56,169 bases of DNA from a virus. Lineage: Duplodnaviria; Caudoviricetes. The DNA lies in the IMG/VR virus record IMGVR_UViG_3300037587_000914, positions 1 through 56,169 of that record. The stretch is one strand, 5' to 3'. Position 1 is the first letter of the stretch; each line of letters begins with the position of its first letter. The translations under genes were made by a program, and so were the position numbers. Under the pieces are notes generated by a model. It saw only the letters and a program-made list of their open reading frames with translations, did no database searches and was not told where the DNA came from. This document shows, in pieces, positions 1,531 through 49,353 of this stretch.

Positions 1531-1688
1531 CATTTTTTCCTCTGCGCCCTTTACGCCTTCCTGCCCGACGCGTTGTTTGGCGGGTGCGGTGAACCCTGTG
1601 AAATCTCCCGATATTGTACAATCAGCCCACACCCCGTCAACGCCAAAATCCCCTAAATCCCAAATCTAAAAGAGTAAATCTGAAATCT

Positions 1689-1985
1689 TTACTCTTTACT
1701 TTCATGCACCGCCCGATAGACCGTTTTAACTGAAACATCGTGGAGGAGGGCCAACTCTTCATAATTTCCGCCTGAGTCTGTGACGCGGTAGCCCTTCCTG
1801 AGCTGCCGGTCTCTTACCACCCGCTTGTAATATGCGAACGAAATGGTGATACGGTCGTCACCGAGCTCCCGCATGATCGTTTCAAATATTTTTCTGGCAC
1901 ACTCTTCGCCATGATCATCAACGAAACAGCTATATAGTCTATCAAGTTTTTCCCAACATTCAGTCTTTGTCTTGGCATTCTGCAA
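1689..1985 (-). CDS. Mor/C-family transcription activator
   Basis: RELGDDRITI..RDRQLR..GGNYEELALLHDVSVKTVYRAV fits the Mor C-terminal HTH pattern; TTG start at 1985 follows GGAGG. Confidence 0.75.
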   Translation of the reverse strand: MQNAKTKTECWEKLDRLYSCFVDDHGEECARKIFETIMRELGDDRITISFAYYKRVVRDRQLRKGYRVTDSGGNYEELALLHDVSVKTVYRAVHESKE

Positions 1986-2940
1986 TATTTTCCCTCCAAA
2001 GATGGTTGAACTCCTTCCAATAAACAGCAAGGCTCGGATATTCTTTAGGAATCCGGCCGCGAGTGGTAATATATATCTGTACGGTAGAAAGGTTTTCCCA
2101 CCCCATCCTCTCCATAATCGCCACGGGGTCATACCCACGAACATACCTGAGATCTGTTGCGTGCCGGCGGCGGAGCATGTGCATGGACACGACCTTCTTT
2201 TTAATACCCGCTTTTTCCGCGTACTGCTTTAATATCTTGTCTATGCCTGGAGCGGTCAGCCGTGATGTTGTTGCATTGTCGCCTTTTCTGTATCCAACCA
2301 GGAGCGGAGACCCCTTCTCTGCTCCTTGAGACATCCTGAGCGTCAGCAATTGTCTGATAAACAGAGACGGAGATTTCCACAGGTAGACAGTGCGTCGTGA
2401 GTCGAATTTCCCGATAACATTTATATCAACCGCCCCCTCTTCATCATCGATACTATATGGGCCCAGGTTGATAATCTCGCTGATGCGCAGACCGCAAAAC
2501 GCACCGAGAATCAGCATGTTGATGTCACGCAGGCCTTTTTCTGAAGAGGGATCCATAACCGCAAAGAGTTTCAATATCTCCTCCTTTGTGAAGTTTGGCA
2601 GAAGTCCCTTGCGTATCTTTGGGCGGGGGATGCCTGCAGCAAAGTCTGCCTCAATAATCCCCTCATAAACCAGGTACCGGGAAAAGCGTTGAATAGCGAT
2701 CAGTTTTGTAAGTCGTGTCCGGTTTTTATTATCCCTGTAATAACAATACTCCAGATACGCCTCAACGTCCTGCCGCACGATTTCGGACATCTCCACCTGC
2801 GAAACAGACTTGTTTTCTCGATACCACCCAAAAAACTCCTCAACCTTCGCACAATAAGACTTAATAGTTATCGGCGACCTCCCCTCCACACTCCTAAGAA
2901 GCCTCTCAAACCCCGAAATATATTCACCCAATTCAATCAT
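1960..2940 (-). CDS. int: Tyrosine recombinase/integrase (XerC-like)
   Basis: GLRISE (R), HMLRR (HxxR), MGWENLSTVQIY (W, Y); N-terminal core-binding region. Confidence 0.92.
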   Translation of the reverse strand: MIELGEYISGFERLLRSVEGRSPITIKSYCAKVEEFFGWYRENKSVSQVEMSEIVRQDVEAYLEYCYYRDNKNRTRLTKLIAIQRFSRYLVYEGIIEADFAAGIPRPKIRKGLLPNFTKEEILKLFAVMDPSSEKGLRDINMLILGAFCGLRISEIINLGPYSIDDEEGAVDINVIGKFDSRRTVYLWKSPSLFIRQLLTLRMSQGAEKGSPLLVGYRKGDNATTSRLTAPGIDKILKQYAEKAGIKKKVVSMHMLRRRHATDLRYVRGYDPVAIMERMGWENLSTVQIYITTRGRIPKEYPSLAVYWKEFNHLWRENIAECQDKD

Positions 2941-3245
2941 TATTTTCCGTTAAATTCATTATTAATTCTGTTAAATATTTCTTCCCATTCTTTGCAATGT
3001 GCTTTTCCTTTTCCCATCACCACATGTGATAATTCATGTGAAATAACATCAACTACGCCTATCAACGGCATGGAGACGTCTATACTAATAACAGGGCTAG
3101 ACCCATTATCTGGAAAGAATGTTTCTCCATATGCTTGTACTTCTTCATACATACCTTGTACGAAGTTTATAGTTACCTCATTGCTTGGATATAATCTTTC
3201 AAAAATATCCACAACCGTTCTTATTGGATCTTCATATTCAACCAT
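2940..3245 (-). CDS. Small HExxH metallopeptidase-like protein (SprT/ImmA-like)
   Basis: ISHELSHVV followed by a distal His. Confidence 0.55.
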   Translation of the reverse strand: MVEYEDPIRTVVDIFERLYPSNEVTINFVQGMYEEVQAYGETFFPDNGSSPVISIDVSMPLIGVVDVISHELSHVVMGKGKAHCKEWEEIFNRINNEFNGK

Positions 3246-4051
3246 TTTTTGTCTTTCATGTAAGTATTAAACGCCGCTGGTCTCGACCATTTTCGAACCA
3301 ATTGCTTCCATGCCTTGCTGTATGTCCGTTTTTGTTCAGGTTGGTATAATTGTGCAAATGGCCAGAAGCCAAGATTGTATATCTTCTCTAGTCTCTTTTC
3401 TGCCTCCAATGGTGTTTCGTTATCAAATGCAATTAATACATAACAACGCTTTTTATAAGTTTTTATGCCTTCTAAAATTTTAGCGGCTCTTGCCAGTTGG
3501 GTTATTGCGCTTTCAGTATCACATGCCAACCAAATCTCTTTTAGCCTTATGCTGTCTAATAGGCCCCTGTGCCAGTCCTTTAATAACGCCTTATCAATTC
3601 CCCCTTTAAATTCTGCGGCCTTCGGTTGTCTTCTTAACATATCAAATACATTTTTAATGTGCTGATCACTGCATTGTAATAAGTTATTGTCGTTTACTAT
3701 CCATCCATCCTTGATCTGTAGTTCCCTTAAAGACCCTTCCCTTTTTGGCACAAAACACCATTTGCATTTTTTATTACATCCCCTGCTTGTAATAGTTATT
3801 CCTTTTTTTGTGAATAACTCGGGAATAAACTCTCCTCCTTCATCGCCATAAGCCGGTCCGCCTACTTTTACATCATCATAGTACATCGACCACTCTTCTT
3901 TTAGTTTTTCTGCTGTTGGTATATCCCATGTAAATACACACGATATCCGTACTGGTAATTGTTCTTTTGGTCGAAATAATGGAGGTAGCCCCACAAAAGA
4001 CAATTCATCATCCGGCGTAAAGCTTGTTTGTTTTGGAAATACTCTAATCAT
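3221..4051 (-). CDS. Radical SAM protein
   Basis: TSRGCNKKCKWC (CxxxCxxC). Confidence 0.85.
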   Translation of the reverse strand: MIRVFPKQTSFTPDDELSFVGLPPLFRPKEQLPVRISCVFTWDIPTAEKLKEEWSMYYDDVKVGGPAYGDEGGEFIPELFTKKGITITSRGCNKKCKWCFVPKREGSLRELQIKDGWIVNDNNLLQCSDQHIKNVFDMLRRQPKAAEFKGGIDKALLKDWHRGLLDSIRLKEIWLACDTESAITQLARAAKILEGIKTYKKRCYVLIAFDNETPLEAEKRLEKIYNLGFWPFAQLYQPEQKRTYSKAWKQLVRKWSRPAAFNTYMKDKKWLNMKIQ

Positions 4052-4055
4052 GTTA

Positions 4056-4541
4056 TTATTCGCTTAATTCTTTAGCTTTAGCTATCACATCAGCCTGGTT
4101 AAAATTGCCATTTGCAACCTCTTTTGCAAGTCTTCTCAATTCATCTATGTCATTTTTCTGTATATGCGTTGGCCAACCTTCCGGATAAAGGCGCCTAATC
4201 ACTCTGACAGCTAAAATGTCTTGTATTCTATGGATAGCGTCTACAACGTCCCGCATTTCATCAGGATGCTGCCTTTCTGTTTTAGAAAAAGCGTTATAAG
4301 CCGCCACTAAACCATCCATACAATCTTGCTCTAACGGGTCAAGTCCGGTTTTTTGATTAACTTCATTTGTTTCGGTTCTGCTGTTTTCTTTACGGACTTG
4401 CTCCATTACGCGTTCCAATTCTTGAAAATGCCCTGTTTTTCTAAGTGTATACCCTTCATCGGTCCTTACATCACCCATACATTCCACAAAGGTTTCCACC
4501 TTCTCTAACAGTGCCAAGACTGTCTTTGAATTAACATTCAT
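4056..4541 (-). CDS. Hypothetical protein sharing its C-terminal 30 aa with 5017-5400
   Basis: ORF track; ATGA overlap. Confidence 0.7.
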   Translation of the reverse strand: MNVNSKTVLALLEKVETFVECMGDVRTDEGYTLRKTGHFQELERVMEQVRKENSRTETNEVNQKTGLDPLEQDCMDGLVAAYNAFSKTERQHPDEMRDVVDAIHRIQDILAVRVIRRLYPEGWPTHIQKNDIDELRRLAKEVANGNFNQADVIAKAKELSE

Positions 4542-4759
4542 GATATACCATTCCTTTTTTTATTTTTACATCTCTTAATAGCAGATTTAATTGCTTTATT
4601 CAGAATAATAGAGCAATCAGTACACAAATGCTCTGTTTCAAACACCTCTCCAGCTGGTTGTAATGCTTTATATGTTTCTTTATTCCAAAGTTGCGCTCTC
4701 AGCTCAACTCCATTAATCTCCATCTCAACACCACAATAATCACAAAACGTTTTCGTCAT
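4538..4759 (-). CDS. Small Zn-ribbon protein
   Basis: CDYC...CTDC. Confidence 0.65.
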   Translation of the reverse strand: MTKTFCDYCGVEMEINGVELRAQLWNKETYKALQPAGEVFETEHLCTDCSIILNKAIKSAIKRCKNKKRNGIS

Positions 4760-4980
4760 ACCTCTTCCTTCTTATTAGGCGTTAAGATATCGCCACAATC
4801 TGTACATACGAAGACTCTTCTTCTGCCAAAGAATCTAGCCGGTATGGAATGATACCAGCCATTATTATGTTTACATGGAGGCGTTGCCGATATGGTTACT
4901 GCCGTATAACCACTGACTTCAGCCGACTTATAAAGCTCTTGCGCTTTATACAAATCCATAAAATCTTTTTGTGTGAACAT
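4756..4980 (-). CDS. Small Cys-rich hypothetical protein
   Basis: CKH...CTDC; coupled to neighbour. Confidence 0.6.
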   Translation of the reverse strand: MFTQKDFMDLYKAQELYKSAEVSGYTAVTISATPPCKHNNGWYHSIPARFFGRRRVFVCTDCGDILTPNKKEEV

Positions 4981-5016
4981 TCCTTTTTCTCCAATAAAGC
5001 GAGTGAATTTTGACAG

Positions 5017-5400
5017 TTATTCGCTTAATTCTTTAGCTTTAGCTATCACGTCAGCTTGATTAAAATTTCCATTTGCGATCTCTTTTGCAAGGTTTCTCAA
5101 TTCATCTATATAATCAGTTGTTTTACCCTGGACTTGTTTGTCTTTTTTTAGACCATTAATAAGATTTTCTATATCCTTCTTTTTTATAAAGGTCCCAAGG
5201 TTGATCCTGGCTGTTTCAACACCTGAGTGATGGTTTGATAAAATAGCCCAACACCCTTTATTGTGTATCATAAATTCAAGTACCAACCACGATCCGCCTC
5301 CTGCTGGCCAGCCTAGCCCCGGAAGGTTACTACCCGTTATCTCAAAATTCTCATTTAACCAACCATTAGAGACAATGCCTTTATTTTGACTCTCTTCCAT
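5017..5400 (-). CDS. Hypothetical protein
   Basis: C-terminus duplicated with 4056-4541. Confidence 0.65.
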   Translation of the reverse strand: MEESQNKGIVSNGWLNENFEITGSNLPGLGWPAGGGSWLVLEFMIHNKGCWAILSNHHSGVETARINLGTFIKKKDIENLINGLKKDKQVQGKTTDYIDELRNLAKEIANGNFNQADVIAKAKELSE

Positions 5401-5419
5401 TTTTCAATACCCTTCCTGC

Positions 5420-6245
5420 CTTACACAAGCCGGCCAAAAAAATTTCCCCCCTCGACCCCCCTGAACGAAAAAACCAAAAAGACCTTTTCCAAAACTATAC
5501 AATTTATAAATACGTATGGGGTAGGAAAAACCAATTTATCCACTATACCTTTCATAGGGGGTGGGTATGTTGGATAAAATAAACAATAGTCAATAAATAC
5601 AACATATTGTACTCAACAAACACACCTCGTAAACCATTACACCATAAAGACATAACGCGTAGAAGTAACATAAGATTTATTATCAGACGATATAAAAACA
5701 ATCCCATATATAGTACATCTCCCCACTCTTCATACATTTCACATTTCTGCTAAACCAACAGCATTTTAAATTACCCACAATAGATAGACCAAACAGAGAA
5801 AAAACTAAAAGAAGTAAACATAATCTACATAACAAGTTATTAATCATTGTAAACCTTAAATATTAAGAATAATATAAGTATATATAATATATTTTATTTA
5901 AACCTATTTGACGCTTTAAACGCCAAAAACATGAATCAAAAGCTTTTGAAGAGTGCTAATCAGAACTACTAACCGTCAGTATGGCACAATTTTAACTGCT
6001 ACACTGCTACTAATCAACACAAGTGTTTATATTACAAACACTTACACCTTGTAGCAGTCCAAAAAGGCGCGGCGCGACTGCTACCCGACTGCTACCAACT
6101 GCTACCACACTGCAACCACTACTGCTACCATAGATAAATATAAATATAATAATAACTTAAGTTTAAATAGTAGCAGTGTAGCACCGTTCTCAGTAATACG
6201 CCCTCCAACTTTTTCCTGATGGCCAGAAAAAAAGAAGAATTTCAA
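5420..6245. other. Putative replication origin: AT-rich non-coding region with CTGCTAC iterons
   Basis: CTGCTAC at 5996, 6004, 6078, 6089, 6099, 6122; inverted GTAGCAG at 6051, 6170; just downstream of primase-helicase. Confidence 0.65.
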
Positions 6246-6250
6246 AAAAA

Positions 6251-6589
6251 CTATGATTCTAAGTAAGTTACTGGCTTACCAATCTTCTCAGCATAATCTA
6301 TTTCGCGCCTTGTAGACTCTCCGATATAACCATCGACATTGAGTACATATATACTGTCTGACAGATCAATCTTACGCAAATGAAGATTGTCAAAATGCTC
6401 TGCGACACCTTCATGTTCTGCAATATGGCATTCAACAATATCTTTGCCTTTAAAATAACCAGGAGGAAGATAATGCAAGCCCAGTACGATAGCACCTTCT
6501 TTCTCAAGTAAATATGCCATTACAGCAACCGTTTCTATAAATCTTGTTGAACCACAAAGAGTAATTATTTTAGGTTGCTTATCACTCAT
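6251..6589 (-). CDS. Nucleoside 2-deoxyribosyltransferase-like / DUF4406-like Rossmannoid protein
   Basis: IITLCGSTRF...KIDLSDSIYVLNVDGYIGESTRREIDYA; start taken at MSDKQ. Confidence 0.65.
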   Translation of the reverse strand: MSDKQPKIITLCGSTRFIETVAVMAYLLEKEGAIVLGLHYLPPGYFKGKDIVECHIAEHEGVAEHFDNLHLRKIDLSDSIYVLNVDGYIGESTRREIDYAEKIGKPVTYLES

Positions 6590-13622: not shown

Positions 13623-14045
13623 TTAGCCTAATCCATTTCTACCAAAGCCGAATGCTTCAAGCGCGTCTTCCACCGTTAAGTCTTCTGACCGTACTCCCAT
13701 TAAATAATGTCTGCCATTCGACAGGCTTTCGTTCATTTTAGAGGATTTTTCCTCTGAGATCTTAGCGTCTTCCTGTCCTCGGCGCAGTTTGTCCGGGGAG
13801 CGTGATAACCTCTCATTAAAAGCCCTGGCGATTTCATTACCCAAAGCAGTAGCAGCTTCAAACGACTCCTTAGCATCAACCATACTGTCAGTATCAAAAA
13901 GCATAATCTGAGCGAAGGGAATATTCATATTGGCTTTTATACACAGATTCACCGACGAGTATTTATTCTTCGGAACACACACAATCTCCAACTCATCCAA
14001 CGGGATATCACCATCAACACAACTACTGATAAATTTAATATTCAT
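13623..14045 (-). CDS. Hypothetical protein containing an in-frame repeat insertion
   Basis: Start MNIKF after AAGGAG; 13752-13806 is a nested repeat. Confidence 0.6.
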   Translation of the reverse strand: MNIKFISSCVDGDIPLDELEIVCVPKNKYSSVNLCIKANMNIPFAQIMLFDTDSMVDAKESFEAATALGNEIARAFNERLSRSPDKLRRGQEDAKISEEKSSKMNESLSNGRHYLMGVRSEDLTVEDALEAFGFGRNGLG

Positions 14046-14941: not shown

Positions 14942-14956
14942 CCCTCCTTTGCGTTC

Positions 14957-15304
14957 TTAGCGGCTCTTGTCCTCGGCGCCTTTTGTCCGGGGAGGCGTGA
15001 TATCCTCTTCACCCTCTAACCGCCGAACACACTGTTCTGCATCAAAAAGCCTTGTTATGCTATAGCCCCGCCCAAAGCGGCCGTCCCACATCCTCATCTC
15101 TCGATAAGCATTCAACAACAACTGATCACGGTCAGGTGCTTCCGGACATTCAGGCCATTTAATACCATCAAATTTATAACTACACCATGGCCGCTTGCAC
15201 CTACTCGGTGTTGTAACGTCATGTTTTTCACCCTCGTATTCCAGATCGTGATAACCAAACCTGCACCTAATCCAGTTAATTACCCGTTTCAAAAAATCTT
15301 TCAT
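14957..15304 (-). CDS. Hypothetical protein (CRFGYHD N-terminal motif)
   Basis: N-terminus paralogous to 15600-16010. Confidence 0.65.
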   Translation of the reverse strand: MKDFLKRVINWIRCRFGYHDLEYEGEKHDVTTPSRCKRPWCSYKFDGIKWPECPEAPDRDQLLLNAYREMRMWDGRFGRGYSITRLFDAEQCVRRLEGEEDITPPRTKGAEDKSR

Positions 15305-19924: not shown

Positions 19925-20218
19925 TCATGCTTCTTTCACCGCCATTACCTCATGGTGTTTTTTGTATATGTTCAGGACAACCCGTCCCCAGTCCATGAGT
20001 TTCTTTTTAAATTCTTCGAAGTCCATCCCGTTCATCCATAGTACATTGATTTTATCATAGAGTTTCTCTTCCTGTTTGCTCAGGCCCGGAGCGTTATCTG
20101 TCGCCCAGGCCAGGCATCCACCCACTACCGTGCTTGCCGGCACCCATTTTTTGTCCAGGACCATTTTGTTAAGCTTGTCACATATTTTAGCGAACTCTAT
20201 TGCGTAGTTGTCTTCCAT
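19925..20218 (-). CDS. Hypothetical protein
   Basis: ORF track. Confidence 0.55.
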   Translation of the reverse strand: MEDNYAIEFAKICDKLNKMVLDKKWVPASTVVGGCLAWATDNAPGLSKQEEKLYDKINVLWMNGMDFEEFKKKLMDWGRVVLNIYKKHHEVMAVKEA

Positions 20219-20222
20219 AAAG

Positions 20223-20326
20223 AAAGTGCCTAAAGTGATCTCCCGCCTAATAAGCTGGCGGACAAGAAAGTTTAAAGTGACTAAAGTTAAAGGAATTAAA
20301 CAGATCCCCGCTTTTGCAAGGATGAC
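20223..20326. repeat. Composite repeat: AAAGTG-type arm with inserted hairpin, plus GGATGACA-type palindrome
   Basis: About 65 bp identical to 24472-24536; related copy at 21385-21464. Confidence 0.85.
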
Positions 20327-21379: not shown

Positions 21380-21468
21380 GGGGAAAGTGCCTAAAGTTTA
21401 AAGTGATCTAAAGTGACTAAAGTTATTGGAATTAAATAGATCCTGAAACGAGTCCAGGATGACAATAG

Positions 21469-24466: not shown

Positions 24467-24578
24467 AAAGGAAGTGCCTAAAGTGATCTCCCGCCTAATA
24501 AGCTGGCGGACAAGAAAGTTTAAAGTGACTAAAGTTATAAAAACAGCTTCCCGATCAAGTCGAGAATGACAGATTCAA

Positions 24579-27085: not shown

Positions 27086-27426
27086 TATCTTTTTACCTTT
27101 GCGTCCTCCGCGGCTTTGCGGTGAACTGTTTTTTTATTTACCCGGGTGGGGCTGGGAGGCAACAATTCAATCAGGTTTTTAATTGGTCCTTCCGCTAGTA
27201 CACGATTTGTTTCAGTTTCTATTATTTTGTACATTTCGTCATCAGAGTGATTTTTTACGGCATCGAACGCCTCCGGTGCGGTGTCGTAGTGGTTCTGGAA
27301 GATGCCGCAGTCGTCAGTGTTGTATCCGGTAAATAGCATGTATTTTTTCATGATTGTAATCGGGCAGACACACCCGCCAAAAAACACGTCGGGCAGACAG
27401 GACAAACACACAGGTTTGCCCCTACG

Positions 27427-27867: not shown

Positions 27868-27962
27868 AATGATCTCCGTTATTAAGGTTTAAATTATAGG
27901 CAAACACACCCGCCAAAAAACACGTCGGACAGGCAGGGCAAACACACAGGTTTGCCCCTACG

Positions 27963-28460
27963 TTATGTATTATTATTTATTGTGATTATGTTTACTTTTT
28001 CGGCCATTTTTTCAACACGAGTACGCACGTCTTCCGCCTCTTTAATAATCATATTGATATGTTTATTTATCACAAGGCTTTCGCTGTAGCTTATTTTTTC
28101 TCCGCCTTCCGGTGTTTTCTTCTGTGCTTTTTGTACCGATTCCGCAAGATGTCCGAAGGCAGTAGCAACGTCCAGGGTCTCTTCCGTTATGCTCTTCTCG
28201 CCTTTGCCTCTGTGCCGGTCTATCAGCACCTTATCAGTGTCGCCGATTGTGAAGTTGAGAAAGTCTATGTCGCCGGTTGCGTTGTATATCAGGGCTTGAA
28301 ACTCTACAGGCACTGCAAGGGTGCCCTCGCAGTATTCACGTATTGTTGGTGCCGGTGTGCTGGTCCTCCTGGCGATAGATTCGACGGTGTAGCGTTTTTC
28401 AATTATGAGTATTTGGTTTAGAAGTTTTGCGAATTTGACGTGTTCTTGTTCGATATTCAT
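27963..28460 (-). CDS. CII-like phage regulatory protein (HTH + helical C-terminus)
   Basis: TVESIARRTSTPAPTIREY HTH; ETLDVATAFGHL; follows the Cro-like gene. Confidence 0.6.
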   Translation of the reverse strand: MNIEQEHVKFAKLLNQILIIEKRYTVESIARRTSTPAPTIREYCEGTLAVPVEFQALIYNATGDIDFLNFTIGDTDKVLIDRHRGKGEKSITEETLDVATAFGHLAESVQKAQKKTPEGGEKISYSESLVINKHINMIIKEAEDVRTRVEKMAEKVNIITINNNT

Positions 28461-29020: not shown

Positions 29021-29245
29021 AAGAAGTTCAAAGTTTCAAAGTGTCTAAAGTGATCTAAAGTTATGGCAAAAGATAAATCTTTTATTATTTTAATAGAAGA
29101 AAAACACCATAACTTTCCTCCTAACAAGCCGGCGGGCAGGGACGGATTAGGGTTGAAGGGAAATAGCTGTTTAAACTGTTTAAGCCGCTTCATCTGTTTA
29201 AGCTGTTCTGTTATGCCCACCCTACGTTACTGTTTAAACTGTTCT
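29021..29245. repeat. Cluster of AAAGTG-type element, inserted hairpin and AAACxGTTT 9-bp periodic repeats
   Basis: Core ttatggcaaaagataaatcttttatt also near 33890, 46100 and 50412. Confidence 0.85.
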
Positions 29246-30832: not shown

Positions 30833-30975
30833 AAGTGCCTAAAGTGAACTAAAGTTTGAAGTGCCTAAAGTTATGGAGTTTTTTTTATTATATAACGTTC
30901 GGTCACTCGCCGAAGGCGATAACTAAAGAACACCTTAACTTTAGGCACTTTAGCTCACTTTAAACTTTGCAACTT
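30833..30975. repeat. AAAGTG/CACTTT inverted-arm element
   Basis: Arms aagtgcctaaagt.. and ..actttaggcacttt. Confidence 0.85.
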
Positions 30976-30982
30976 TTTTTCC

Positions 30983-32506
30983 TTAAGCTTCAGTTATCCT
31001 CATTTTCGTAAACCTCGGGTTGACCGCTATGAAGACTTCTCCTACGGTAAACACCTGCGAATCATGCTCAGCCTGGTCACCAGATACAATGCTGCTGTCC
31101 ATCTTCGACTCAATGTGTATCTTACCGCTATAGACAGATTTAAGGCTGGCCAGTTCCAGGGATATCCCTTTCGGCGTTCCGACAGACGTCGTCTTATGCC
31201 CTGCCAGGGTCGCGCTGCTTTTAAATGACCCCTCATCCGTCCTGATCGTCTCAAGCTCAACCCGTGCTCTCTCAATACTCTCCGGAGTTCCATCCGCCTT
31301 GATCCCGTTCCTCGTTATTACCAGCTCACCGTTCGGCCTTGCGTTAATGCTGTCGGCATTCTGCCTGCTGTTAGGTGATATTACACTGAGCCACGACGGA
31401 TCCCCGTCCTTCAGCCGAGTCTGGAAGCTGGTCATGGGTAATACGACATCATCCACGCTGTCCGGCGCGCCGGTAAGTGTCAGCGTATATGTAACAGCGT
31501 GATAGACCGTAGCAGGTATATGAAACCCGTTGAGTATATATCGTTGGTTCAGGAACAGAGAGAAAGGCCCCGTCGGTACGATAAGCGCGTATCGTTGGTT
31601 TAATAACTCAGTGTACAGTGTCGGTGCATTGAGGGCATAACGCTGGTTGAGAAAAGTGGTCGTCAATACCGCGCCTGCAAGAGCATACCGCTGATTCAAT
31701 ACTTCCTTGTATAGTGTCGGAGCACCGAGAGCATACCGCTGATTAAGTGAGGATGTTATCAGCGTTGCTCCCGTTAGGGAATATCTCTGGTTCAGCGACG
31801 CTTCGTTCAGGACAGGTGCAGTCAAAGCATATCTCTGTCCAAGAAAAATAGTCGGCAGAGTATATTCTTGTGTTGGCGGTGTAAACCCGCCTGCCCATCC
31901 TCTGTCAGTACCATTTGAAATACGAGGCTCATCTATCCATCCATCATGAGGATTGGTAGTGTTTCTCGGATCGACCCCTATTTTCAAAGCGGCAGTATTG
32001 TCTGATATTGCGCCTGAATCCGTAAGCGTTGAACCTGACTGTACTCCATCAATAAATATTCTCCAGCTATTCACACTCCGGGTTATAGCTAAATGGTACC
32101 ATTGCCCTGTATTTGGGGTCCACGTTGCGCTACTAACCGTTATAACAGGAGAGCCGGACGCCCATTGCTCAAAACCAAGGCCGCCTCCATGGTTCCTGAT
32201 AAACCGCCACATCTCATTCGTATTTGCTCCTTTTCCTATAAAAACATGGTTTGCGGAAACAGTCGCAAATCTCACCCAGAAATCAATAACAAAGTCATTA
32301 GTTCCAAAATTGTAATCTGTATGGTCCGGGTATGAAACATATTGAGAGGATGCGGCCACAAATTTACCGGAACCTGCTCCAAGCTTCTTTATACCGGTAT
32401 CAATCGTTGCGCCGTTTACCGTAGGCGTATGACCTGTAACACTCGAATCACTGAAGTCCGAGTTCATATGCAGTATTAACTTTGTGAAGCTGTCTATTCC
32501 AGGCAT
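30983..32506 (-). CDS. LamG/ConA-like domain tail protein with LNQRY repeats
   Basis: DFVIDFW, WYHLAITR, IFIDG, GWIDEPRIS; 7 repeats of about 16 aa. Confidence 0.8.
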   Translation of the reverse strand: MPGIDSFTKLILHMNSDFSDSSVTGHTPTVNGATIDTGIKKLGAGSGKFVAASSQYVSYPDHTDYNFGTNDFVIDFWVRFATVSANHVFIGKGANTNEMWRFIRNHGGGLGFEQWASGSPVITVSSATWTPNTGQWYHLAITRSVNSWRIFIDGVQSGSTLTDSGAISDNTAALKIGVDPRNTTNPHDGWIDEPRISNGTDRGWAGGFTPPTQEYTLPTIFLGQRYALTAPVLNEASLNQRYSLTGATLITSSLNQRYALGAPTLYKEVLNQRYALAGAVLTTTFLNQRYALNAPTLYTELLNQRYALIVPTGPFSLFLNQRYILNGFHIPATVYHAVTYTLTLTGAPDSVDDVVLPMTSFQTRLKDGDPSWLSVISPNSRQNADSINARPNGELVITRNGIKADGTPESIERARVELETIRTDEGSFKSSATLAGHKTTSVGTPKGISLELASLKSVYSGKIHIESKMDSSIVSGDQAEHDSQVFTVGEVFIAVNPRFTKMRITEA

Positions 32507-33855: not shown

Positions 33856-33980
33856 AAGTTTGAAGTTAAAAGTTGAAAATGCCTAAAGTTATGGCAAAAG
33901 ATAAATCTTTTATTTTTTTAATAGAAGAAAAACACCTTAACTTTAGCTCACTTCACACTTTAGTTCACTTTAAGCACTTT
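33856..33980. repeat. AAAGTG/CACTTT inverted-arm element
   Basis: Closely similar to 50383-50500. Confidence 0.85.
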
Positions 33981-34018: not shown

Positions 34019-36634
34019 TTACGATACTCCTAATAAATACTCCGCACCCTCTGCGTTCGCCCGTATCTGCACACGTTCCAGTATCGCAAACATAAATGCT
34101 TCCAGTTCCGGCTCAAGTCCGTCACCGGTTATATTGATTATTGCCTCGCCTTCCGTCAGGCGGTTAAGTTGTGCGTCGGCAATCCTGTTTTGTTTCTCAA
34201 TAAATGTCTTTTGTTCCGGACTTATCTCGCCTTTTCGTTTAGCCTCTCTCTCTAATGCCTCTATCGAGGATACTGGCCTGCCAAAGATTGTTGATAATGG
34301 CAACGGTATGTCTCTTAACGCATCCGGTATCGCAGTTTTAGTATTTCTAATCTCAATACCGAACTCCTCCATCGCCTTCCGGCTTTTAAGTATAGCGTTC
34401 AAGGATCTTTGTTCTTCCTCGGTCTGTGCACCAGGAAGTGCCTGGGCGGCCAGGAGTTTTCTCTCGGTTTCTGTTTGCGCTCTAAGGGCAAACATATCAA
34501 CGCCGTCAATCATGGCCTTTGTAATTCTATTCGTATTTATCCTGCTTGTAAGATCCACGCCGTCTATTACTGCCTTTGCAACCTGGTCTCCACCTACCCT
34601 GCTACTGAAATCTATTCCGTCAATCACAGCCTTTGTTATTCTGTCCGCATTTATCCTGCTACTGAAGTCAATACCATCAATTACGGCCCTTGAGGCAACA
34701 GGTACTTCTTTTCGTGCGGCCCTTGCCTTCGTTTCAAACTCCAGCTGCTCTGCCTTCGTGGGAGCAGGTAATTTAACATCCTTGACACGGAATAATTTAT
34801 TTAAACCAGTAAACTTTTCAATAAGCTTCCCCGCTTCAAACGATGCCAGGCCGATTGCCGCCACGAGGCCCGCTTTGCCGAGTGCTTTAGTGATAGAGCC
34901 TATTCCCTTAGTTGCCTTAGAAGATGTAAAAAGTGCATCGAATTTCGCTTGTGCAGTCGTCGCCTGGACTCCGGCTGTTGTGGCAGCCGCTCCTAGTCCG
35001 GCTGCCCCGGTCAATGCAGTAATCACCGCGCCCACTCCCCTTGCACCTGCCATAGTGGCAAATTTCAGGCTCAGACCGGTCATTGCAATACCCAAAAGCC
35101 CCAGAGCCGGGAGTAGCAGTGTTGTAATTGCGACAGACACCCCGCCAACACTGCCTATTGTCTTCTGCATCTTAGGGTCAAGGTCCGAGAACCATCTAAT
35201 CGTTTTGATTATGATCCCTCCGACTTCCCCAAATACCTTTACTATTCCCGCAGTAACGTCTATCATCGAACCTCCAACCTCGATAATGCGGTTAAACAGT
35301 ATTGCAAGGTCCTCCGGCTTTGTCAGATCAAGACCGGTAAACAGATCATCAAAAGTCTCATCTATCCTTCCAAGCGCATCAAGAATTGGTGTAAAGTCTG
35401 TTTTTTCAAACGCCTCCGGCAGTGCCACGGCAATCTTACCGATCACTTCCTCCCACTCCTTCAGCTGTGGTCTGATCTTCTCCAGGAGGGTCTCAAATCC
35501 GCCTCCGGTAACTATGCCCTGCAGTGCTATCTCAAAATCTGTTATGCTTCCAATTACTCCGGTAAGCTCTGGCCTGAACTGGTCACCGATAGACCTGGCC
35601 ATGTTATCAAATGCGACTTTTGCCCGGTCTACCTGCTTCTCTGATGCCTCCAGTCTTGTGTTTACCTCTTTTGCTACGGATCCTGCGGAATTATATGCTA
35701 GCCTTGTAATCTTCAATGACTTAGAAAGACCGTCAAATACCTTTACCATCTTTCCTGCCTGTCTAATGCCTACCAGCTCCCCTGTGATAAACAGTTTCTG
35801 GTTCTTGTCAAGGGTCTTAAACGCTTTTGCAACATCAAAGAGGATATCCTTCCCTGACCTAAGCTTACCATTATAGTCCTTCTGGCTGACGCCTATCGCT
35901 TTCAGTGCGGCCTGCACAGGCTTCTGGTCGCTGATAAGTCTCAAGAGTCCGGTCTTCAGGGCGACTGCAGCCTCTCCGCCCGATCTGAATACTTCGATGA
36001 TTGGTGTCAGCACGCCCGCAGTCTCTTCAAAGTTGAAGCCCATCAACTTTGCAATCGGCGAAAGTTCTGCCATGCCGATACCCAACTGCTTCAGGTTTGT
36101 CGCGTATTTATTGGAAACTTCGTTGAGTATATCGGTAAGACGTGCGGCTTCTGAGGCAGGGGCTTCAAATCCTTTCAGTGTAGACACCAATAATTCCGAT
36201 GCTTCCGCCGCCTCCAGGTCACCCGCAACAACGAGGTCGAGGGCAGCCTTCTGCAATTCAAAACTTTCTTTGACTGTGAATCCCGCCTGTTTGAAGTTAG
36301 CTGCACCTTGTAATATATCTGTTGATGCTTCACCATATTTATTTGACAGAATATCAACAGCACCGGTAAACTGGCTTGCTGCCCCTTCCGAATCGCTCAT
36401 GACCTTCTGCAAGTCGAGCAAAGCTCCCTCGAATTTGCTTGACTCCTTGAACGCCTTTACGGCAAGTGCCACACCGACTGCCACTATCGCACCCTCAAGG
36501 ATAAGGAATTTCTTGGTAAGGTCTGCAACCGGGCTGGCGATTTTGCCTATATTGTTTGACACGCCGGATATGACATTACCCGTCTTATCAGTAGCGCCGA
36601 AAATGATTTGAACTGTTTTGTTTAGGTCAGCCAT
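34019..36634 (-). CDS. Tail tape measure protein (TP901 family)
   Basis: Ala/Gly-rich helical protein after the tail chaperone; PhageMin_Tail-like region. Confidence 0.9.
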   Translation of the reverse strand: MADLNKTVQIIFGATDKTGNVISGVSNNIGKIASPVADLTKKFLILEGAIVAVGVALAVKAFKESSKFEGALLDLQKVMSDSEGAASQFTGAVDILSNKYGEASTDILQGAANFKQAGFTVKESFELQKAALDLVVAGDLEAAEASELLVSTLKGFEAPASEAARLTDILNEVSNKYATNLKQLGIGMAELSPIAKLMGFNFEETAGVLTPIIEVFRSGGEAAVALKTGLLRLISDQKPVQAALKAIGVSQKDYNGKLRSGKDILFDVAKAFKTLDKNQKLFITGELVGIRQAGKMVKVFDGLSKSLKITRLAYNSAGSVAKEVNTRLEASEKQVDRAKVAFDNMARSIGDQFRPELTGVIGSITDFEIALQGIVTGGGFETLLEKIRPQLKEWEEVIGKIAVALPEAFEKTDFTPILDALGRIDETFDDLFTGLDLTKPEDLAILFNRIIEVGGSMIDVTAGIVKVFGEVGGIIIKTIRWFSDLDPKMQKTIGSVGGVSVAITTLLLPALGLLGIAMTGLSLKFATMAGARGVGAVITALTGAAGLGAAATTAGVQATTAQAKFDALFTSSKATKGIGSITKALGKAGLVAAIGLASFEAGKLIEKFTGLNKLFRVKDVKLPAPTKAEQLEFETKARAARKEVPVASRAVIDGIDFSSRINADRITKAVIDGIDFSSRVGGDQVAKAVIDGVDLTSRINTNRITKAMIDGVDMFALRAQTETERKLLAAQALPGAQTEEEQRSLNAILKSRKAMEEFGIEIRNTKTAIPDALRDIPLPLSTIFGRPVSSIEALEREAKRKGEISPEQKTFIEKQNRIADAQLNRLTEGEAIINITGDGLEPELEAFMFAILERVQIRANAEGAEYLLGVS

Positions 36635-39896: not shown

Positions 39897-40013
39897 TTTG
39901 ATTTACTATTTTAGATTTACGATTTTTTTTCTCAACGCAGAGGCGCGGAGAACGCAGAGAAAGGCGTTTTTTTTTAAACTTTGCGATCTTCGCGGCTTGG
40001 CGTGAGATCTTCT

Positions 40014-40879: not shown

Positions 40880-41016
40880 CTTTTTTACCCCCTCTGTGCC
40901 TTTTTTCCTTTGCGCCCTCTGCGCCTTTGCGGTGAACTTTTTTCCTTTTTGGGACGGACACATAGGTCATGCCCCTACATAAAATTCATTTAAATCTGAA
41001 ATCGTAATTCGTAAAT

Positions 41017-41169: not shown

Positions 41170-41180
41170 TTTAGTTTCCC

Positions 41181-41495: not shown

Positions 41496-41496
41496 G

Positions 41497-45099: not shown

Positions 45100-45185
45100 A
45101 TTTATTCTCATTTGATTAAGGGCGAACACATAGGTACGCCCCTACGTTAAAATCCTTAAATCCTTAAATCCCTCAATTCCTAAAT

Positions 45186-45494
45186 CTATAGATACTTTGC
45201 CCTTAGAACATCAGGATCTGCACCGCCTATGGGTGCCTCTATCATTGTTATCTGATTTGTAGACAGCGTATAATCATCACCCTCCCACAGAAGCAACCCG
45301 TTAAGGTAAAGGTCTAGTGAGTCGGTTATCGGCGTTTGAGTTAAAGTAAACACCAGATTGACCCCGTTAATAGCGCCGGATGGCGTTTCTTTAAAAAACG
45401 TAACCGCATGAGCTTCGTTCCAATTACTGGGGCGCACGATAGTATCGTCAGGGCCATCTGCTTTTGGATTGTTAAACGCATGTATAATTCCCAT
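45186..45494 (-). CDS. Small virion/fibre-associated beta protein
   Basis: ETPSGAINGVNLVFTL..LYLNGL..GDDYT. Confidence 0.65.
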   Translation of the reverse strand: MGIIHAFNNPKADGPDDTIVRPSNWNEAHAVTFFKETPSGAINGVNLVFTLTQTPITDSLDLYLNGLLLWEGDDYTLSTNQITMIEAPIGGADPDVLRAKYL

Positions 45495-45497
45495 AAA

Positions 45498-45839
45498 TCA
45501 AAACTTCCTCGCGTTTACGATGACCTCGTAGTTTTCCGGATAAGCTGAAATAATCCCCAATGCGCTAGACACATAGAACACCGCTTTATACGGCGAATTG
45601 GTTGAGACAAAAGTAGCTGCTACACGTGAAAATTTGACCCTGCCGTTGGCCGCATCTTCTATGGCAAGAAGCGGACTGGCGTCATTGGTCTTGTGGCTGA
45701 CAATAGCATCGTCTTTCCCCTTTATCCTGATCTCTACATACGTAACACCAACTAACGACACAAAAGAGCTATTCAGCAATAATTCAAAGCTTATGGGGTC
45801 ATCTGTACCATCCCTTACTATTACGGTTGTATTGGCCAT
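45498..45839 (-). CDS. BppU N-terminal-like Ig domain protein
   Basis: RDGTDDPISFEL..IEDAANGRVKF. Confidence 0.55.
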   Translation of the reverse strand: MANTTVIVRDGTDDPISFELLLNSSFVSLVGVTYVEIRIKGKDDAIVSHKTNDASPLLAIEDAANGRVKFSRVAATFVSTNSPYKAVFYVSSALGIISAYPENYEVIVNARKF

Positions 45840-45844
45840 TTAAT

Positions 45845-45997
45845 TTATTCTCGAACATACTCTCTGACATTTGTATCTCTACCCACCACAATAATGTCCT
45901 TATTAGCAAGGACAATGTTCACATCCCTGATATCTTTGTACGTTAAAGGTCCAACCTGGAAAGCATCTACCTGAAAAGCATCTGTCTGGAATGCCAT
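45845..45997 (-). CDS. 50-aa ORF missed by the track, with AFQxD repeats
   Basis: MAFQTDAFQVDAFQVG... Confidence 0.6.
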   Translation of the reverse strand: MAFQTDAFQVDAFQVGPLTYKDIRDVNIVLANKDIIVVGRDTNVREYVRE

Positions 45998-46030
45998 GTT
46001 TATTTAATCCCTTATTCCATACTTACTTTT

Positions 46031-46170
46031 GTCATTCCCGTAGTCTGTTGAGCGGGAATCTAAGTGACTAAAGTGAACTAAAGTTTAAAGTGCCTAAAGT
46101 TATGGCAAAAGATAAATCTTTTATTCTTTTAACTTTAGGCACTTTAGATCACTTCAAAGCTTCACACTTC
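46031..46170. repeat. GTCATTCCCG..CGGGAATCT palindrome followed by AAAGTG inverted-arm element
   Basis: Directly after the capsid stop; could act as a terminator. Confidence 0.8.
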
Positions 46171-46172
46171 TT

Positions 46173-47132
46173 TTACGACAATGCGCATTTCCTGAACTGC
46201 TTCTTCTGGCCGATTATGCCGTTGTATCCACCTGTTGATACGTGAGCGGCACCAAGGACCAACTCATTACGCTGAGGAGGTCTCAGGTTCAGATCTTCCC
46301 ACTCGCCACGCTGATTCTTATCGCCTGGCAGGACTACCCAGTAGTGTGTATTTGCCATCTTCGTCGTGCTGATCACCGTGTCGATGTTGTACACAATCTG
46401 ATTGCTATTGGCATTCGGGCTCACAAAAGAGGAGGCTATCGCCTGAAATATCCTGCCCCTTAATATGGGATTGCAGACGATGGCAAATGTTGAGTTCTCG
46501 TCTACGTCATGCCCCACTGCTTCGAGGTCGATTAGTATGTTCGCACATGCCTTATTTATTGTGTTAACGTCAGATGTGTCAAATGCCTGGTCTATGCTTG
46601 TCAAAGCTGTAATCAGCGCGTAGAATATAGTTGCTTTCTTGTCCCACCATCTACGGACGGTTGCAGAAGCAAGCGCGTCTATTTTGTAATACTGGTTAAA
46701 CCTGATCCAGTCATCCAGCACGTTGAACCCGCCTGTAAACCTTAGCATGGCAACGTTAGTCTTCGCTGATGTCGGCAGTTTGGAGAGCTTCGCCTCTTCG
46801 CCCTCAAGCTGCTGGTAGAAGGTTACACCGCCGCTTACATCAAGCACATCGAATGTGTTGTTCGTGCTCGTGCGCATGTCCACCTCGTCAAAGAGGAATT
46901 CATATCCTCTGTCAGGTGATTTAATGGTATTCGCCTGAACAAGCGAAACAGGTATAGTACCCATGAGATTCGAATCAGAACCCACAAACTTGTCGCCGCT
47001 TACTCTCGTAACAGGACCGTCGTGAACCTCCTTCATGAAGTGGTTCAGGGCGCCGATAATGGCATCCTTCCTATCCTCCACTGGGATCTCTTCGATCCTT
47101 TTCCAGTCAAAAATTTTCTTTCCGTATAACAT
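46173..47132 (-). CDS. Major capsid protein
   Basis: Synteny after protease and cement; 319 aa; GGAGG RBS. Confidence 0.7.
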   Translation of the reverse strand: MLYGKKIFDWKRIEEIPVEDRKDAIIGALNHFMKEVHDGPVTRVSGDKFVGSDSNLMGTIPVSLVQANTIKSPDRGYEFLFDEVDMRTSTNNTFDVLDVSGGVTFYQQLEGEEAKLSKLPTSAKTNVAMLRFTGGFNVLDDWIRFNQYYKIDALASATVRRWWDKKATIFYALITALTSIDQAFDTSDVNTINKACANILIDLEAVGHDVDENSTFAIVCNPILRGRIFQAIASSFVSPNANSNQIVYNIDTVISTTKMANTHYWVVLPGDKNQRGEWEDLNLRPPQRNELVLGAAHVSTGGYNGIIGQKKQFRKCALS

Positions 47133-47241
47133 TCTACGTTCCCTCCTTTTTATAATTGCGTTGTAGGGGCGAACCTATGTGTTCGCCCTGTTTGTTAATA
47201 TGTGTTTGCCCTGTTTGTTAGGATGTATTCACCGTTTTAGT

Positions 47242-47853
47242 TTATGTCACAGCTCTGACTAATGTGTAGTCCAGAATATGGTCAGTACTTGGATCCGCAC
47301 TCATCACAACGTCGATCTGTCCTGATGCGGCCTGCGCATCTAATATCGTCACCGGAGTAGCGCCCCTGTCGTTCAATGTTACATGACAGACGTCTGTCGC
47401 CAGTGCACCGGCAATAGTGATAGTCTCGTTCGCATCGCCGCCTGCAGTTGTGAATGAAGCGGCTGCTATAATTATGTGCGTCTGTACAACTCCGGCGGCA
47501 GATATAACGTCCAGCTTCGGTTCCAGCCACATGACGACGTGAGTATCTGCACTGGCAGCATCCTCAAGGCAGTAACCGCACTGCGTGTTGCCGGCGGCTG
47601 ACTTATTGATTTCGTCGTCTGCCACATCAAAATAAACTTTATCGTGCGCGTTGATAGCCAACGATGTATTCTTGGGCATCGAAACCTTACCCTTGTATAC
47701 ATAAGCGTTGTCTGCCGCTGCGTCAGCGGCATTGACTGCAATCAATATCGCACCGTTATTCAAAATTATCTGGCCCAGCGTAACGGCGGAACTATCATCG
47801 TGTTTAATAGTCCTTAAGTTGGGTATAACGTCCATAGGTATTCCGATTGCCAT
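47242..47853 (-). CDS. DUF2190-like capsid cement/decoration protein with C-terminal extension
   Basis: AINAHDKVYFD..GNTQCGYCLEDA. Confidence 0.7.
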   Translation of the reverse strand: MAIGIPMDVIPNLRTIKHDDSSAVTLGQIILNNGAILIAVNAADAAADNAYVYKGKVSMPKNTSLAINAHDKVYFDVADDEINKSAAGNTQCGYCLEDAASADTHVVMWLEPKLDVISAAGVVQTHIIIAAASFTTAGGDANETITIAGALATDVCHVTLNDRGATPVTILDAQAASGQIDVVMSADPSTDHILDYTLVRAVT

Positions 47854-48007
47854 GATCTTGCCTCCTTTTTGTTATTTGGTTAATTGGTTCTTTGCCGGCT
47901 CAATCTTTTAGATTGAGCCGAAACATTTTATCTTGTGTTCTTGTATAATTAAGGGCAAACACACAGGATTGCCACCTTGTCCTCGGCGCCTTTTGTCCGG
48001 GGAACAT

Positions 48008-49264
48008 TTATTTCTTGCTATCTGTATTGGGGATCAATACGTTCTCTTTCTCCCCATCCTTAGACTTGTCCCTGCTATCATCACCTTCTGTCTGCGATTT
48101 GTTAGGGAATGCAACTTCCATCCTCTTCTGAAGACTCTTATTCTCATTCTTCAGATAGTCAATAGGATGATTCTCCACGACAGCCTTTACACCCTTCTGA
48201 TCTTCTTCTGACTCGCCGATATCTTTAAGCGCGGCCTTCATCCTGATGTTGTCCTTAACCAGCTCCTGCCTGAAAGCCTTGCCGTCAGCAGCAAGCGGGT
48301 CGAGTTCGGATATCTTCGTTTCGAGTTCCGTTATTTTGGTTTCCTTCACCTTGATCTGCGTATCGGCTTTTGTGCCGGCAGCACCAATCAACGCCTTAAT
48401 CTCGTCAGCAATGCCATCCTCTGTGAAGAGAGTTTTAAACTCCTTAGACAATTTTTCTAAAAACGCTTTTAAGTCCATGCTGTCCTTACCTCCTTTTTCG
48501 TTGTTAACATTATTTTCTATATCTTTTACCTGCTGCTCATCACTACCGGTCTCATCCTTATGGGAAGTGAGCCAGGAATTTAAATTCTGTGCCTTTTCGC
48601 CGTCATGTAGATATGACTGCGCAACCTTATAAGCCACCCTGTCAATATCCTTCTGCGAAGTTGCCCCCTGCTGTGCTCCGAGATAAACGATAGAGCCTTC
48701 CCTCGCCTCACCTGGAGCAACATATTCAAAATACAATACCTGGTCGAATTCACCTTTAACCGCTTTAAAATCGGTAGCAGTAAAGCCGATTGACCTGTGG
48801 CGATAAATGCCCCCGGAAAGGTTATCTATCAGCTTCTGGTTCCACTCCTTCCTGAGTGTGTAGATCCACGCAAAAATAACTTTCGCCTTATCAATCTCGT
48901 CAGGAAGCCGTATCTCCTCTCCCGTGATCTCTTTAAACTGCTCCTTTGATATCTCTTCCGTTTTAGCATCGAAATAGAGACCGATAGGAAGCCGGCTCCT
49001 GTCATGTACCTCAAGGAATGATTTCCCCGGCAGCGTCCGGGCGTAATCATCTAACAGATCTTCAGGAAAGCGTTCCCTGTCGCGGTCTATACCGTTATGT
49101 GCCAACAGCTCTTTTTGTACGTATATATCGCCTGCCGCAAGAGTCTCCTGCGCATATTTACTATTAATGATATCCAGCATATCCGGCGTAACATCAGCAC
49201 CCTTAATGGACACAAGCCCGGTCTGCTTGTAATATGTTTTGTTTTTATCTTTATTCTTTTTCAT
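48008..49264 (-). CDS. Prohead protease fused to scaffold
   Basis: DRDRERF, GKSFLEVHD, SIGF, EGSIVYLGAQ; coiled-coil C-terminus. Confidence 0.75.
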   Translation of the reverse strand: MKKNKDKNKTYYKQTGLVSIKGADVTPDMLDIINSKYAQETLAAGDIYVQKELLAHNGIDRDRERFPEDLLDDYARTLPGKSFLEVHDRSRLPIGLYFDAKTEEISKEQFKEITGEEIRLPDEIDKAKVIFAWIYTLRKEWNQKLIDNLSGGIYRHRSIGFTATDFKAVKGEFDQVLYFEYVAPGEAREGSIVYLGAQQGATSQKDIDRVAYKVAQSYLHDGEKAQNLNSWLTSHKDETGSDEQQVKDIENNVNNEKGGKDSMDLKAFLEKLSKEFKTLFTEDGIADEIKALIGAAGTKADTQIKVKETKITELETKISELDPLAADGKAFRQELVKDNIRMKAALKDIGESEEDQKGVKAVVENHPIDYLKNENKSLQKRMEVAFPNKSQTEGDDSRDKSKDGEKENVLIPNTDSKK

Positions 49265-49353
49265 ATCTGATTGTATTTGTACGGACGAACCTCGCGTCCT
49301 CGGCGCTTTTCAGTCCGGGGAATGTGTTCGCCCTTGTCCGGATGCCCTACGGA

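Follow-up and report, generated by a model that had tools for sequence, protein, structure and literature searches.

How short non-coding repeats without transposon ends spread through genomes has been an open question since repetitive extragenic palindromic (REP) elements and small dispersed repeats (SDRs) were described. The question arises again in the virus record IMGVR_UViG_3300037587_000914 of IMG/VR, analysed here over its complete length of 56,169 nucleotides (nt; the window). Three families of hairpin units of 25-26 nt, called H1, H2 and H3, lie in or beside other repeats of this phage genome, and a first-pass annotation, made from the sequence, had proposed that they are ultra-small mobile hairpins that target repeats. 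This interpretation is partly supported: the units are discrete and are found with many unrelated flanks, in filled and empty carriers and nested in one another, while their mobility is deduced from paralogues only and much of their copy number is passive. The reading preferred here, with a probability of roughly 0.6, is that H1, H2 and H3 belong to the genomes of Candidatus Scalindua, marine anammox bacteria, as very small, SDR-like mobile elements that are non-autonomous, are moved in trans by a host activity, are inserted without target duplication and are then multiplied with their carriers. It is based on discrete ends, the diversity of flanks, filled and empty paralogues, nesting and a lineage-restricted distribution.

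Hairpin units and their sites in the phage

In every unit, an imperfect, G+C-rich stem-loop of 6-7 bp comes after a short head, which is CCTG, CTTG or AAAG. The layout is CCTGCCCGAC-(loop)-GGCGGG in H1, CCTG(T/C)CCGCC-(loop)-GGCGGG in H3 and, after three variable head letters (mostly CTT or AAA), G-TCCTCGGCGC-(loop)-GTCCGGGG-A in H2. H1 and H3 are sub-families of one design, since they are of equal length (25 nt) and identical at 17 of 25 positions. The ends are sharp: over the collected copies, information drops from 1.8-1.9 bits to at most 0.5 bits within 1-2 nt beyond the units, the three variable head positions of H2 (0.6-0.8 bits) being the exception. Left flanks often, though not uniformly, end in CTT or CC. 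No terminal inverted repeats were found on the units, the hairpin itself being the sole inverted repeat. When folded as RNA, the CYTG-first strand is more stable than its complement in H1 (-12.3 vs -8.0 kcal/mol) and H2 (-10.8 vs -6.4 kcal/mol), a difference due to G.U pairs at one or two positions of the stem. The two strands of H3 fold equally well, and the degenerate relative at 29116-29140 folds no better than shuffled sequences.

The intergenic regions of the phage are packed with repeats, including GTAG-type REPs, G repeats, tandem arrays of 7-nt and of 9-nt units, and the D element. The G repeats consist of CTTTGCG/CTCTGCG-like units, read on the gene strand as ..TTCACCGCAAAGGCGCAGAGG.., and end directly 5' of a start codon. 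The hairpin copies, the uninterrupted repeats compared with them and the other repeats referred to below are as follows (ORF stands for open reading frame and MITE for miniature inverted-repeat transposable element).

360-384 (+): H1 (CCTGCCCGACG..TTTGGCGGG, 25 nt), occupying the loop of a GTAG-type REP with arms at ~341-359 and 385-395
1560-1584 (+): H1, splitting a G repeat between GCCTT and TGCGGTGAAC, within the 5' leader of a minus-strand gene starting near 1534
27373-27397 (-): H1, between a complete REP (~27398-27426) and a half REP (~27362-27372), part of a 102-nt composite
27909-27933 (-): H1, in the paralogous composite copy 27899-28000, with a REP at ~27934-27962
13774-13799 (+): H2 (TGTCCTCGGCGC..GTCCGGGGA), inside a G repeat
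14968-14993 (+): H2, inside a G repeat; ORF 14957-15304 (-) reads through repeat and hairpin at its 3' end
47978-48003 (+): H2, adjoining the REP at 47952-47973, 4 nt from the stop of gene 48008-49264 (-)
49295-49321 (+): H2 with one extra nt in its loop, within the loop of a REP with arms at ~49281-49294 and 49322-49350
49334-49343 (+): H2-like 11-nt remnant (head and 3' arm only), in the right arm of the REP that holds H2 49295-49321
20242-20266 (-; CTTG-first on the minus strand): H3, between 8-9-nt units of a D arm
24490-24514 (-): H3, identical to the 20242 copy and in the same ~75-nt composite
29116-29140 (-): degenerate H1/H3 relative, replacing the right arm of the D element 29032-29115
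40899-40940 (+): uninterrupted G repeat of CTTTGCG/CTCTGCG units ending in TGCGGTGAAC, empty comparison for 1560
39975-40012 (+): uninterrupted G repeat, empty comparison for 13774 and 14968
21385-21425 (+): D arm without hairpin, the same units in another order, family-level empty comparison
29032-29093, 30842-30978, 33860-33921, 46071-46172, 50383-50502: the five phage copies of the D element, a MITE-like inverted repeat of ~100 nt with AAAGTGNCT units around a conserved centre
about a dozen places, including 16255, 29167, 33434, 33980, 38933, 53007, 53104 and 56023: arrays of 9-nt units (CNGTTTAAA) between genes

All copies that had been claimed are present at the places given for them. Pattern searches allowing up to 3 mismatches recovered four H1, two H3 and two of the four H2 copies in the window, the fixed-spacing H2 pattern missing the others because loop length varies; 100 dinucleotide-preserving shuffles for each family gave no match. 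The short H2 form (head and 3' arm), as at 49334-49343, is also found in host loci. The statement that nearly every copy lies in or beside another repeat was confirmed by a motif classifier, which placed 10 of 11 window copies in or adjoining a G, REP or D repeat, compared with 32.2% of 2000 random non-coding window positions (binomial tail 9e-5, or 7e-4 for the ~9 independent contexts that remain because two pairs of copies belong to duplicated composites).

Filled and empty sites were compared with a pairwise aligner using cheap gap extension, as MAFFT left long gaps unopened. Both G-repeat claims, that H1 at 1560-1584 splits a repeat with an intact form near 40907-40936 and that H2 interrupts repeats at 13774 and 14968, agree with the alignments: 1531-1596 differs from 40899-40940 by a single 25-nt gap (35 of 41 aligned columns identical), and 13748-13815 and 14945-15010 differ from 39975-40012 by a single 27-nt gap each (26/33 and 29/36 identical). 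A single gap of 25-28 nt, located in the REP loop, also separates 341-397 from intact REPs. The placement of H1 within GTAG-REP-like arms stands at 360; at 27373 and 27909 the hairpin does not simply interrupt a single REP, as a complete REP lies on one side and half a REP on the other. H2 had been said to split a REP near 49296 and to adjoin one at 47978; the REP at 49275-49350 indeed has H2 in its loop, together with the H2-like remnant in one arm, and the 47978 copy lies beside its REP. For the D arm the claim was that H3 splits it at 20242 and 24490, with an uninterrupted form at 21385. The hairpin does lie between D-arm units, and alignment of 20215-20295 with 21380-21430 needs a 32-nt gap; the pair is a family-level comparison and provides no exact empty site, because the order of the 8-9-nt units differs. 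The relative expected to truncate a D element near 29117 stands in place of its right arm. Aligning filled with empty repeats, the check proposed for these claims, gave single gaps for the G repeats and the REP at 341-397, and no target duplication was found in the clean pairs from the window, the MITE-like unit described below and H2 nested in H2.

Hairpins placed inside repeats could also result from chimeric assembly, by joins at repeats common to abundant community members. Contigs of both marine-sediment runs that were searched break at hairpins, for example at 14965/14993 and 24501/24508. Such an artefact is hardly credible as an explanation, as second-sample contigs cross 13774-13799 and 27909-27933 without differences, the genome closes on a terminal overlap of 139 nt (1-139 vs 56031-56169, 99% identical) and the gene order is that of a coherent phage. 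Because its 139-nt ends repeat each other, the genome is regarded as complete, with ~56,030 nt in circular or terminally redundant form.

Distribution, contexts and carriers in Candidatus Scalindua

When one genome per species was scanned for H2, many chance matches were obtained in high-GC genomes, and 16 of the 19 low-GC matches (among the 80 matches listed) were titled Candidatus Scalindua. A stricter H2 pattern detected 54, 79, 14, 11 and 26 copies in five Scalindua genomes and none with the reversed-pattern control. H1-like units are present in all five (2-16 each; control 0) and H3 in two (10 and 19 copies). In the order containing the Scalindua genomes, H2 was found in 19 of 61 sampled genomes. 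Scalindua chromosomes also have the D, G, 9-mer and heptamer repeats of the phage, each H2 loop variant of the phage has an exact counterpart in host genomes, and the same applies to one H1 loop variant. The hairpin system has its home in Candidatus Scalindua chromosomes and not in the phage. Host G repeats also contain, next to H2 and H3, a fourth hairpin family (CCCGTCCGAACGG..GGCCGGGCGGG, ~27 nt; L509 2660-2690, L120, L241, L247, L162), which the phage lacks.

Eleven H2 loci, mostly in G repeats, were found in other viral contigs, and the five H2-bearing viral records that were searched share only repeats, and no genes, with the phage. Among the matches listed in viral-contig scans, low-GC loci numbered 1 of 119 for H1 and 2 of 119 for H3, the rest being chance matches in high-GC contigs; one low-GC viral locus (L348) has an H1-like unit within a heptamer array. 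Relatives of the phage capsid protein (42-67% identical, from contigs of 48-62% GC) have none of these repeats. A capsid search of 92 genomes of the order gave a match in two (62% and 41% identity), neither of them H2-bearing. The 62%-identical gene is prophage-like (L507, G037:C5:42711-46697), and its presence in an H2-less genome of the order suggests that phages of this type infect several anammox lineages. No CRISPR-spacer-like matches of phage coding DNA were detected in the five Scalindua genomes, all matches listed falling in phage repeats. From shared repeats only, we infer that the host of the phage would be a Scalindua close to genomes G002 and G003.

In host genomes as in the phage, the units are almost always found in or next to other repeats or palindromes. 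In G repeats, H1 and H2 both occupy the same spot, directly before (T)GCGGTGAA, and a host composite of G repeat and H1 (L149) is the same as that at window position 1560. Other contexts are GTAG REP loops, D arms and, often for H3, heptamer arrays, and units are also held in the loops of other palindromes, such as CCTTGC-GAAA-GCAAGG followed by T's, which is terminator-like. A count of host copies inside and outside other repeats had been proposed as a check. By a conservative classifier, copies in a recognised repeat or palindrome number 46 of 69 for H2, 17 of 30 for H1 and 17 of 35 for H3; all three exceed the 11.7% of 6000 random non-coding host positions. Many of the copies outside recognised repeats sit visibly in degenerate versions of these same repeats. 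A cruder classifier (7-bp palindromes at many offsets and a strict tandem test) could not tell hairpins and controls apart and was abandoned.

Occupation of a fixed spot before (T)GCGGTGAA, in G repeats directly upstream of phage start codons, would also be expected of a functional module, that is, of RNA structures or of sites bound by, for example, a regulatory, nucleoid or RNA-processing factor, selected in 5' leaders and in terminator or REP loops, with the phage using host expression signals. H1 sub-families keep their stems and vary their loops, and unit density is higher in the phage than on the chromosomes of the host (for H2, 4 per 56 kb, by our own arithmetic 3-17 times the host densities), both of which fit this explanation. 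It is nevertheless improbable. There is no Rfam match at gathering score in the window, no transcript polarity is maintained (six phage copies are antisense to genes and five sense), and several copies are located in other hairpins or in degenerate tandem arrays, which looks selfish.

Units also occur within one another and in tandem. One H2 copy lies within another H2 within a REP and is delimited by a single 30-nt gap (50/59 identical); at L249, H3 is found in the 3' arm of an H2 that is itself in a palindrome loop. Tandem arrays include a mixed one at L259. Arrays of this kind, the internal direct repeat of H2 (TTGTCC..TTGTCC) and the existence of short forms without the intervening segment could all be attributed to a local origin, in which replication slippage or template switching in G+C-rich repeats would create hairpins on the spot time and again. 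Identical 23-nt cores, however, recur across at least 19 genomes in contexts that are unrelated and number in the dozens, and as independent slippage would not remake one sequence, this origin is very improbable.

One carrier of H2 is a MITE-like unit of ~118 nt (for example L509 465-582), which has hundreds of copies in genomes G001, G005 and G036. Its sub-families either have H2 at a single fixed site in the centre or lack it, and some copies have an added H1-like unit. Filled and empty forms differ by exactly 27 nt (73/85 identical), and exact junctions in G001, G005 and G036 number 89, 88 and 80 filled and 34, 61 and 193 empty.

Route of spread and the phage genome

Several observations weigh against trans-mobilised hairpins, and those concerning the carriers come first. 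Most H2 copies in G001, G005 and G036 ride in the MITE-like unit, the H2 copy number in these genomes mostly reflects the amplification of carrier sub-families, and amplification of a sub-family after a single insertion fits the MITE-like carrier data as well as repeated insertion does. In the window, the pairs 20242/24490 (~75 nt) and 27373/27909 (102 nt) are duplicated composites. The stability of the hairpins is modest, with z of -1.0 to -2.8 in the better strand.

An orthologous site differing solely by a hairpin was not found among phage relatives, second-sample contigs or cross-species host loci. GenBank phages gave no match, protein 48008-49264 has no relatives in viral contigs, and for ORF 14957-15304 the protein collection yielded no homologue. 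Metagenome contigs contain radical-SAM relatives with only 40-49% identity, and the prophage capsids (62% and 41%) are of no use for site comparison because they are too distant. Where contigs of the two samples bridge a hairpin, as those of the second sample do at 13774-13799 and 27909-27933, the filled state is the same. Among the matches listed from the two marine-sediment runs, no contig skips just a hairpin; contigs mostly break at repeats, and several parts of the genome have little or no cover. At a G001 locus compared across species, the carrier repeat is present in two genomes and was not found there in two others, and such cross-species loci give no exact hairpin-only empty site because their flanks are too diverged.

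A candidate enzyme was looked for beside the hairpins. Matches to Y1_Tnp number 10-18 in each of G001, G002, G003 and G005 and one in the fifth Scalindua genome, many being intact ORFs of ~330 amino acids (e.g., L214, L217, L218, L221-L223). Of 20 Y1_Tnp loci, none has H1 or H2 at the gene flanks, one having a REP with H2 735 nt away, and no GTAG REPs flank the ORFs. Inverted H2 pairs lie 0.5-3.6 kb apart and enclose housekeeping genes only. In the closed genome G036, the H2 copies listed are split 23+/15- and then 13+/14- between strands (own count, with origin and terminus unmapped); this lack of clear strand bias does not favour a lagging-strand mechanism like that of IS200/IS605 elements. 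None of the 77 phage ORFs scanned encodes a transposase, an HUH protein or a reverse transcriptase.

Taken to the full, the carrier data would mean that the units only hitch-hike: a few ancient insertions or local accidents were followed by carrier amplification, recombination and gene conversion, the unit is now immobile, and the phage imported carriers that were already filled. Such hitch-hiking is consistent with the junction counts for one fixed site in three genomes (80-89 filled, 34-193 empty), with the grouping of 31 of 99 H2 copies in the largest flank cluster, with the two duplicated window composites and with the sharing by host genomes of the composite of G repeat and H1 at 1560 (L149). 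Hitch-hiking as the sole process is unlikely on the remaining evidence. The collected copies fall into 24 flank clusters for 29 copies of H1, 21 for 33 of H3 and 45 for 99 of H2, their boundaries are sharp and identical across unrelated flanks, and they occupy at least six carrier classes as well as one another, which homology-driven conversion between unrelated carriers would not be expected to produce.

According to the preferred reading of trans-mobilised, carrier-multiplied elements, a trans-acting host activity would insert the 25-26-nt unit without target duplication into DNA that is readily single-stranded or prone to slippage. Targets would include the apical loops of palindromes (REPs, terminator-like hairpins and the centre of the MITE-like unit), the junctions of short tandem units (G octamers, heptamer arrays and D-arm octamers) and other hairpin copies. 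Once inside a carrier repeat, the unit would be multiplied passively as the carrier spreads. The approximately ten hairpins of the phage may have been inserted where they now lie while it infected or lysogenised its host, or may have come in with carriers already filled. Actual transposition, the enzyme and a single-stranded intermediate (RNA or ssDNA) are what we infer from these patterns; an intermediate of fixed polarity would fit, as the G.U pairs make the two strands asymmetric.

A stronger version, in which the hairpins are active 25-nt 'nano-transposons' with an undescribed mechanism, is possible and rather doubtful. Here a host activity, perhaps RNA-templated or an HUH enzyme, would copy the hairpin with its 4-nt head into the single-stranded loops of other structured repeats and between tandem short repeats, and the temperate phage would be both a target and a vehicle between Scalindua lineages. 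If so, these units would follow the Nostoc SDRs as a second case, from a phylogenetically unrelated lineage, and would be the first such case from a virus, and such elements would be a general but overlooked class. Among mobile DNA elements, the hairpins would appear to rank with the smallest known. As the phage holds them at a higher density than the host chromosome does, one may ask whether viruses move them, and the enzyme could be sought by comparing the at least 19 genomes that have the elements with 42 related ones that do not. Host repeat ecosystems can colonise the intergenic regions of phages, which matters for host prediction and genome assembly.

The long ORFs of the phage are nearly all on the minus strand, and its cumulative GC skew falls monotonically. 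Pfam matches among the 77 ORFs include a tyrosine integrase, a primase-like protein, two DNA methyltransferases, a radical-SAM protein and an HNH endonuclease, together with the virion proteins (tape-measure protein, Mu-type portal, Mu Gp36, Mu Gp37, capsid protein and cement protein). The phage is probably temperate, since an integrase is encoded. No tRNA was found in the window. ORF 283-633 (-) reads through the REP with H1 before its stop, as ORF 14957-15304 (-) does through the G repeat with H2, and because both pass through repeats to reach a stop, their C-termini may be rewritten by repeat insertion. Scalindua genomes contain the D element as well, and it is matched by many further contigs from the two sediment runs; one stretch of a 9-nt array matches a Scalindua chromosome. 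At 161-264, eight 13-nt units (TCGTTGGGGCGGA-like), resembling serial REP half-sites, lead into a full REP near the genome end and the integrase region. The tape-measure gene holds three tandem 57-nt (19-codon) repeats (34496-34692). A 98-nt repeat, 90% identical between 4056-4153 and 5017-5114, lies at the 3' ends of two adjacent small ORFs, which are likely paralogous genes. Protein 30983-32506 (-) of the tail region is probably a receptor-binding protein of the phage: it contains a concanavalin-like lectin domain (Laminin_G_3) and weakly matches the N-terminal, lectin-like receptor-binding fold of clostridial neurotoxins.

Comparison with known small repeats

No description of these repeats was found in the literature searched on anammox bacteria, including Scalindua and Scalindua phages. 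Several known classes were considered and set aside on the features compared. The units are not intrinsic terminators, as no T run follows them, even if some sit in the loops of terminator-like hairpins; they are not GTAG or CGTC REPs, REPINs (hairpin-forming REP doublets) or MITEs, as they are without the matching tag, inverted doublets, terminal inverted repeats or duplication. With MITEs they share a structured and non-autonomous character, and differ in having neither terminal inverted repeats nor target duplication. With IS200/IS605 elements they have in common the absence of target duplication and a short conserved sequence beside a hairpin, whereas there is a single hairpin here, no distinct left and right ends and no clear strand bias among the G036 copies listed. 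Compared with MITEs and IS200/IS605-derived elements, they are 4-10 times shorter.

REP and REPIN elements are mobilised by REP-associated tyrosine transposases (RAYTs; PMC3116915; PMC3733652), and REPs inserted inside other palindromes have been reported (PMC3733652). Like the present units, they are imperfect palindromes of short length that lie outside genes in high copy number, carry a conserved tetranucleotide at one end and are presumed to move in trans. The present units have CCTG, CTTG or AAAG as their head, as against GTAG or CGTC in REPs; inverted doublets at short spacing, as in REPINs, are not found, the close pairs being direct tandems with a period of 27-32 nt; and there was no REPtron-like arrangement with Y1 (RAYT) genes in the 20 loci examined. 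GTAG REPs are here the targets and not the invaders.

Full-size insertion sequence (IS) elements that target REPs are protein-coding and have target duplications. A 2006 paper by Tobes and Pareja reportedly deals with IS elements targeting REPs, and a 1999 paper in J Bacteriol with insertion into the palindromic units that belong to bacterial interspersed mosaic elements (BIMEs). Insertion into REPs or palindromic units is shared with the present units, which by contrast are 25 nt long, non-coding and without duplication.

The small dispersed repeats SDR1-8 are said to have been described from Nostoc punctiforme and relatives by Elhai et al. in Genome Res in 2008 (18:1484), and PMC5861425 mentions SDR5 together with HIP1. 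They are reportedly 21-27 nt long, predicted to form a stem-loop, dispersed, found in tandem heptamers and mini-transposons, self-nested and confined to heterocystous cyanobacteria, and an RNA intermediate is said to have been suggested for them. To our knowledge, no enzyme is known for SDRs. The Scalindua units are similar in their length (25-26 nt), sharp ends, hairpin and high dispersed copy number, and in the occurrence of H3 in heptamer arrays, of H2 in the MITE-like unit and in H2 itself, and of mixed arrays. They differ in that their hosts are anammox Planctomycetota (metagenome-assembled genomes of Candidatus Scalindua) and not Nostocaceae, and in that they are also found in REP loops and in a phage genome. 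The presence in a second, unrelated lineage of 25-nt units with sharp ends, no target duplication, nesting and a preference for heptamers and palindrome loops suggests a general mechanism and not a cyanobacterial oddity. Of the known systems, SDRs are the closest: judged by size, hairpin, heptamer context and self-nesting, the hairpins would be of the SDR kind, though of different families.

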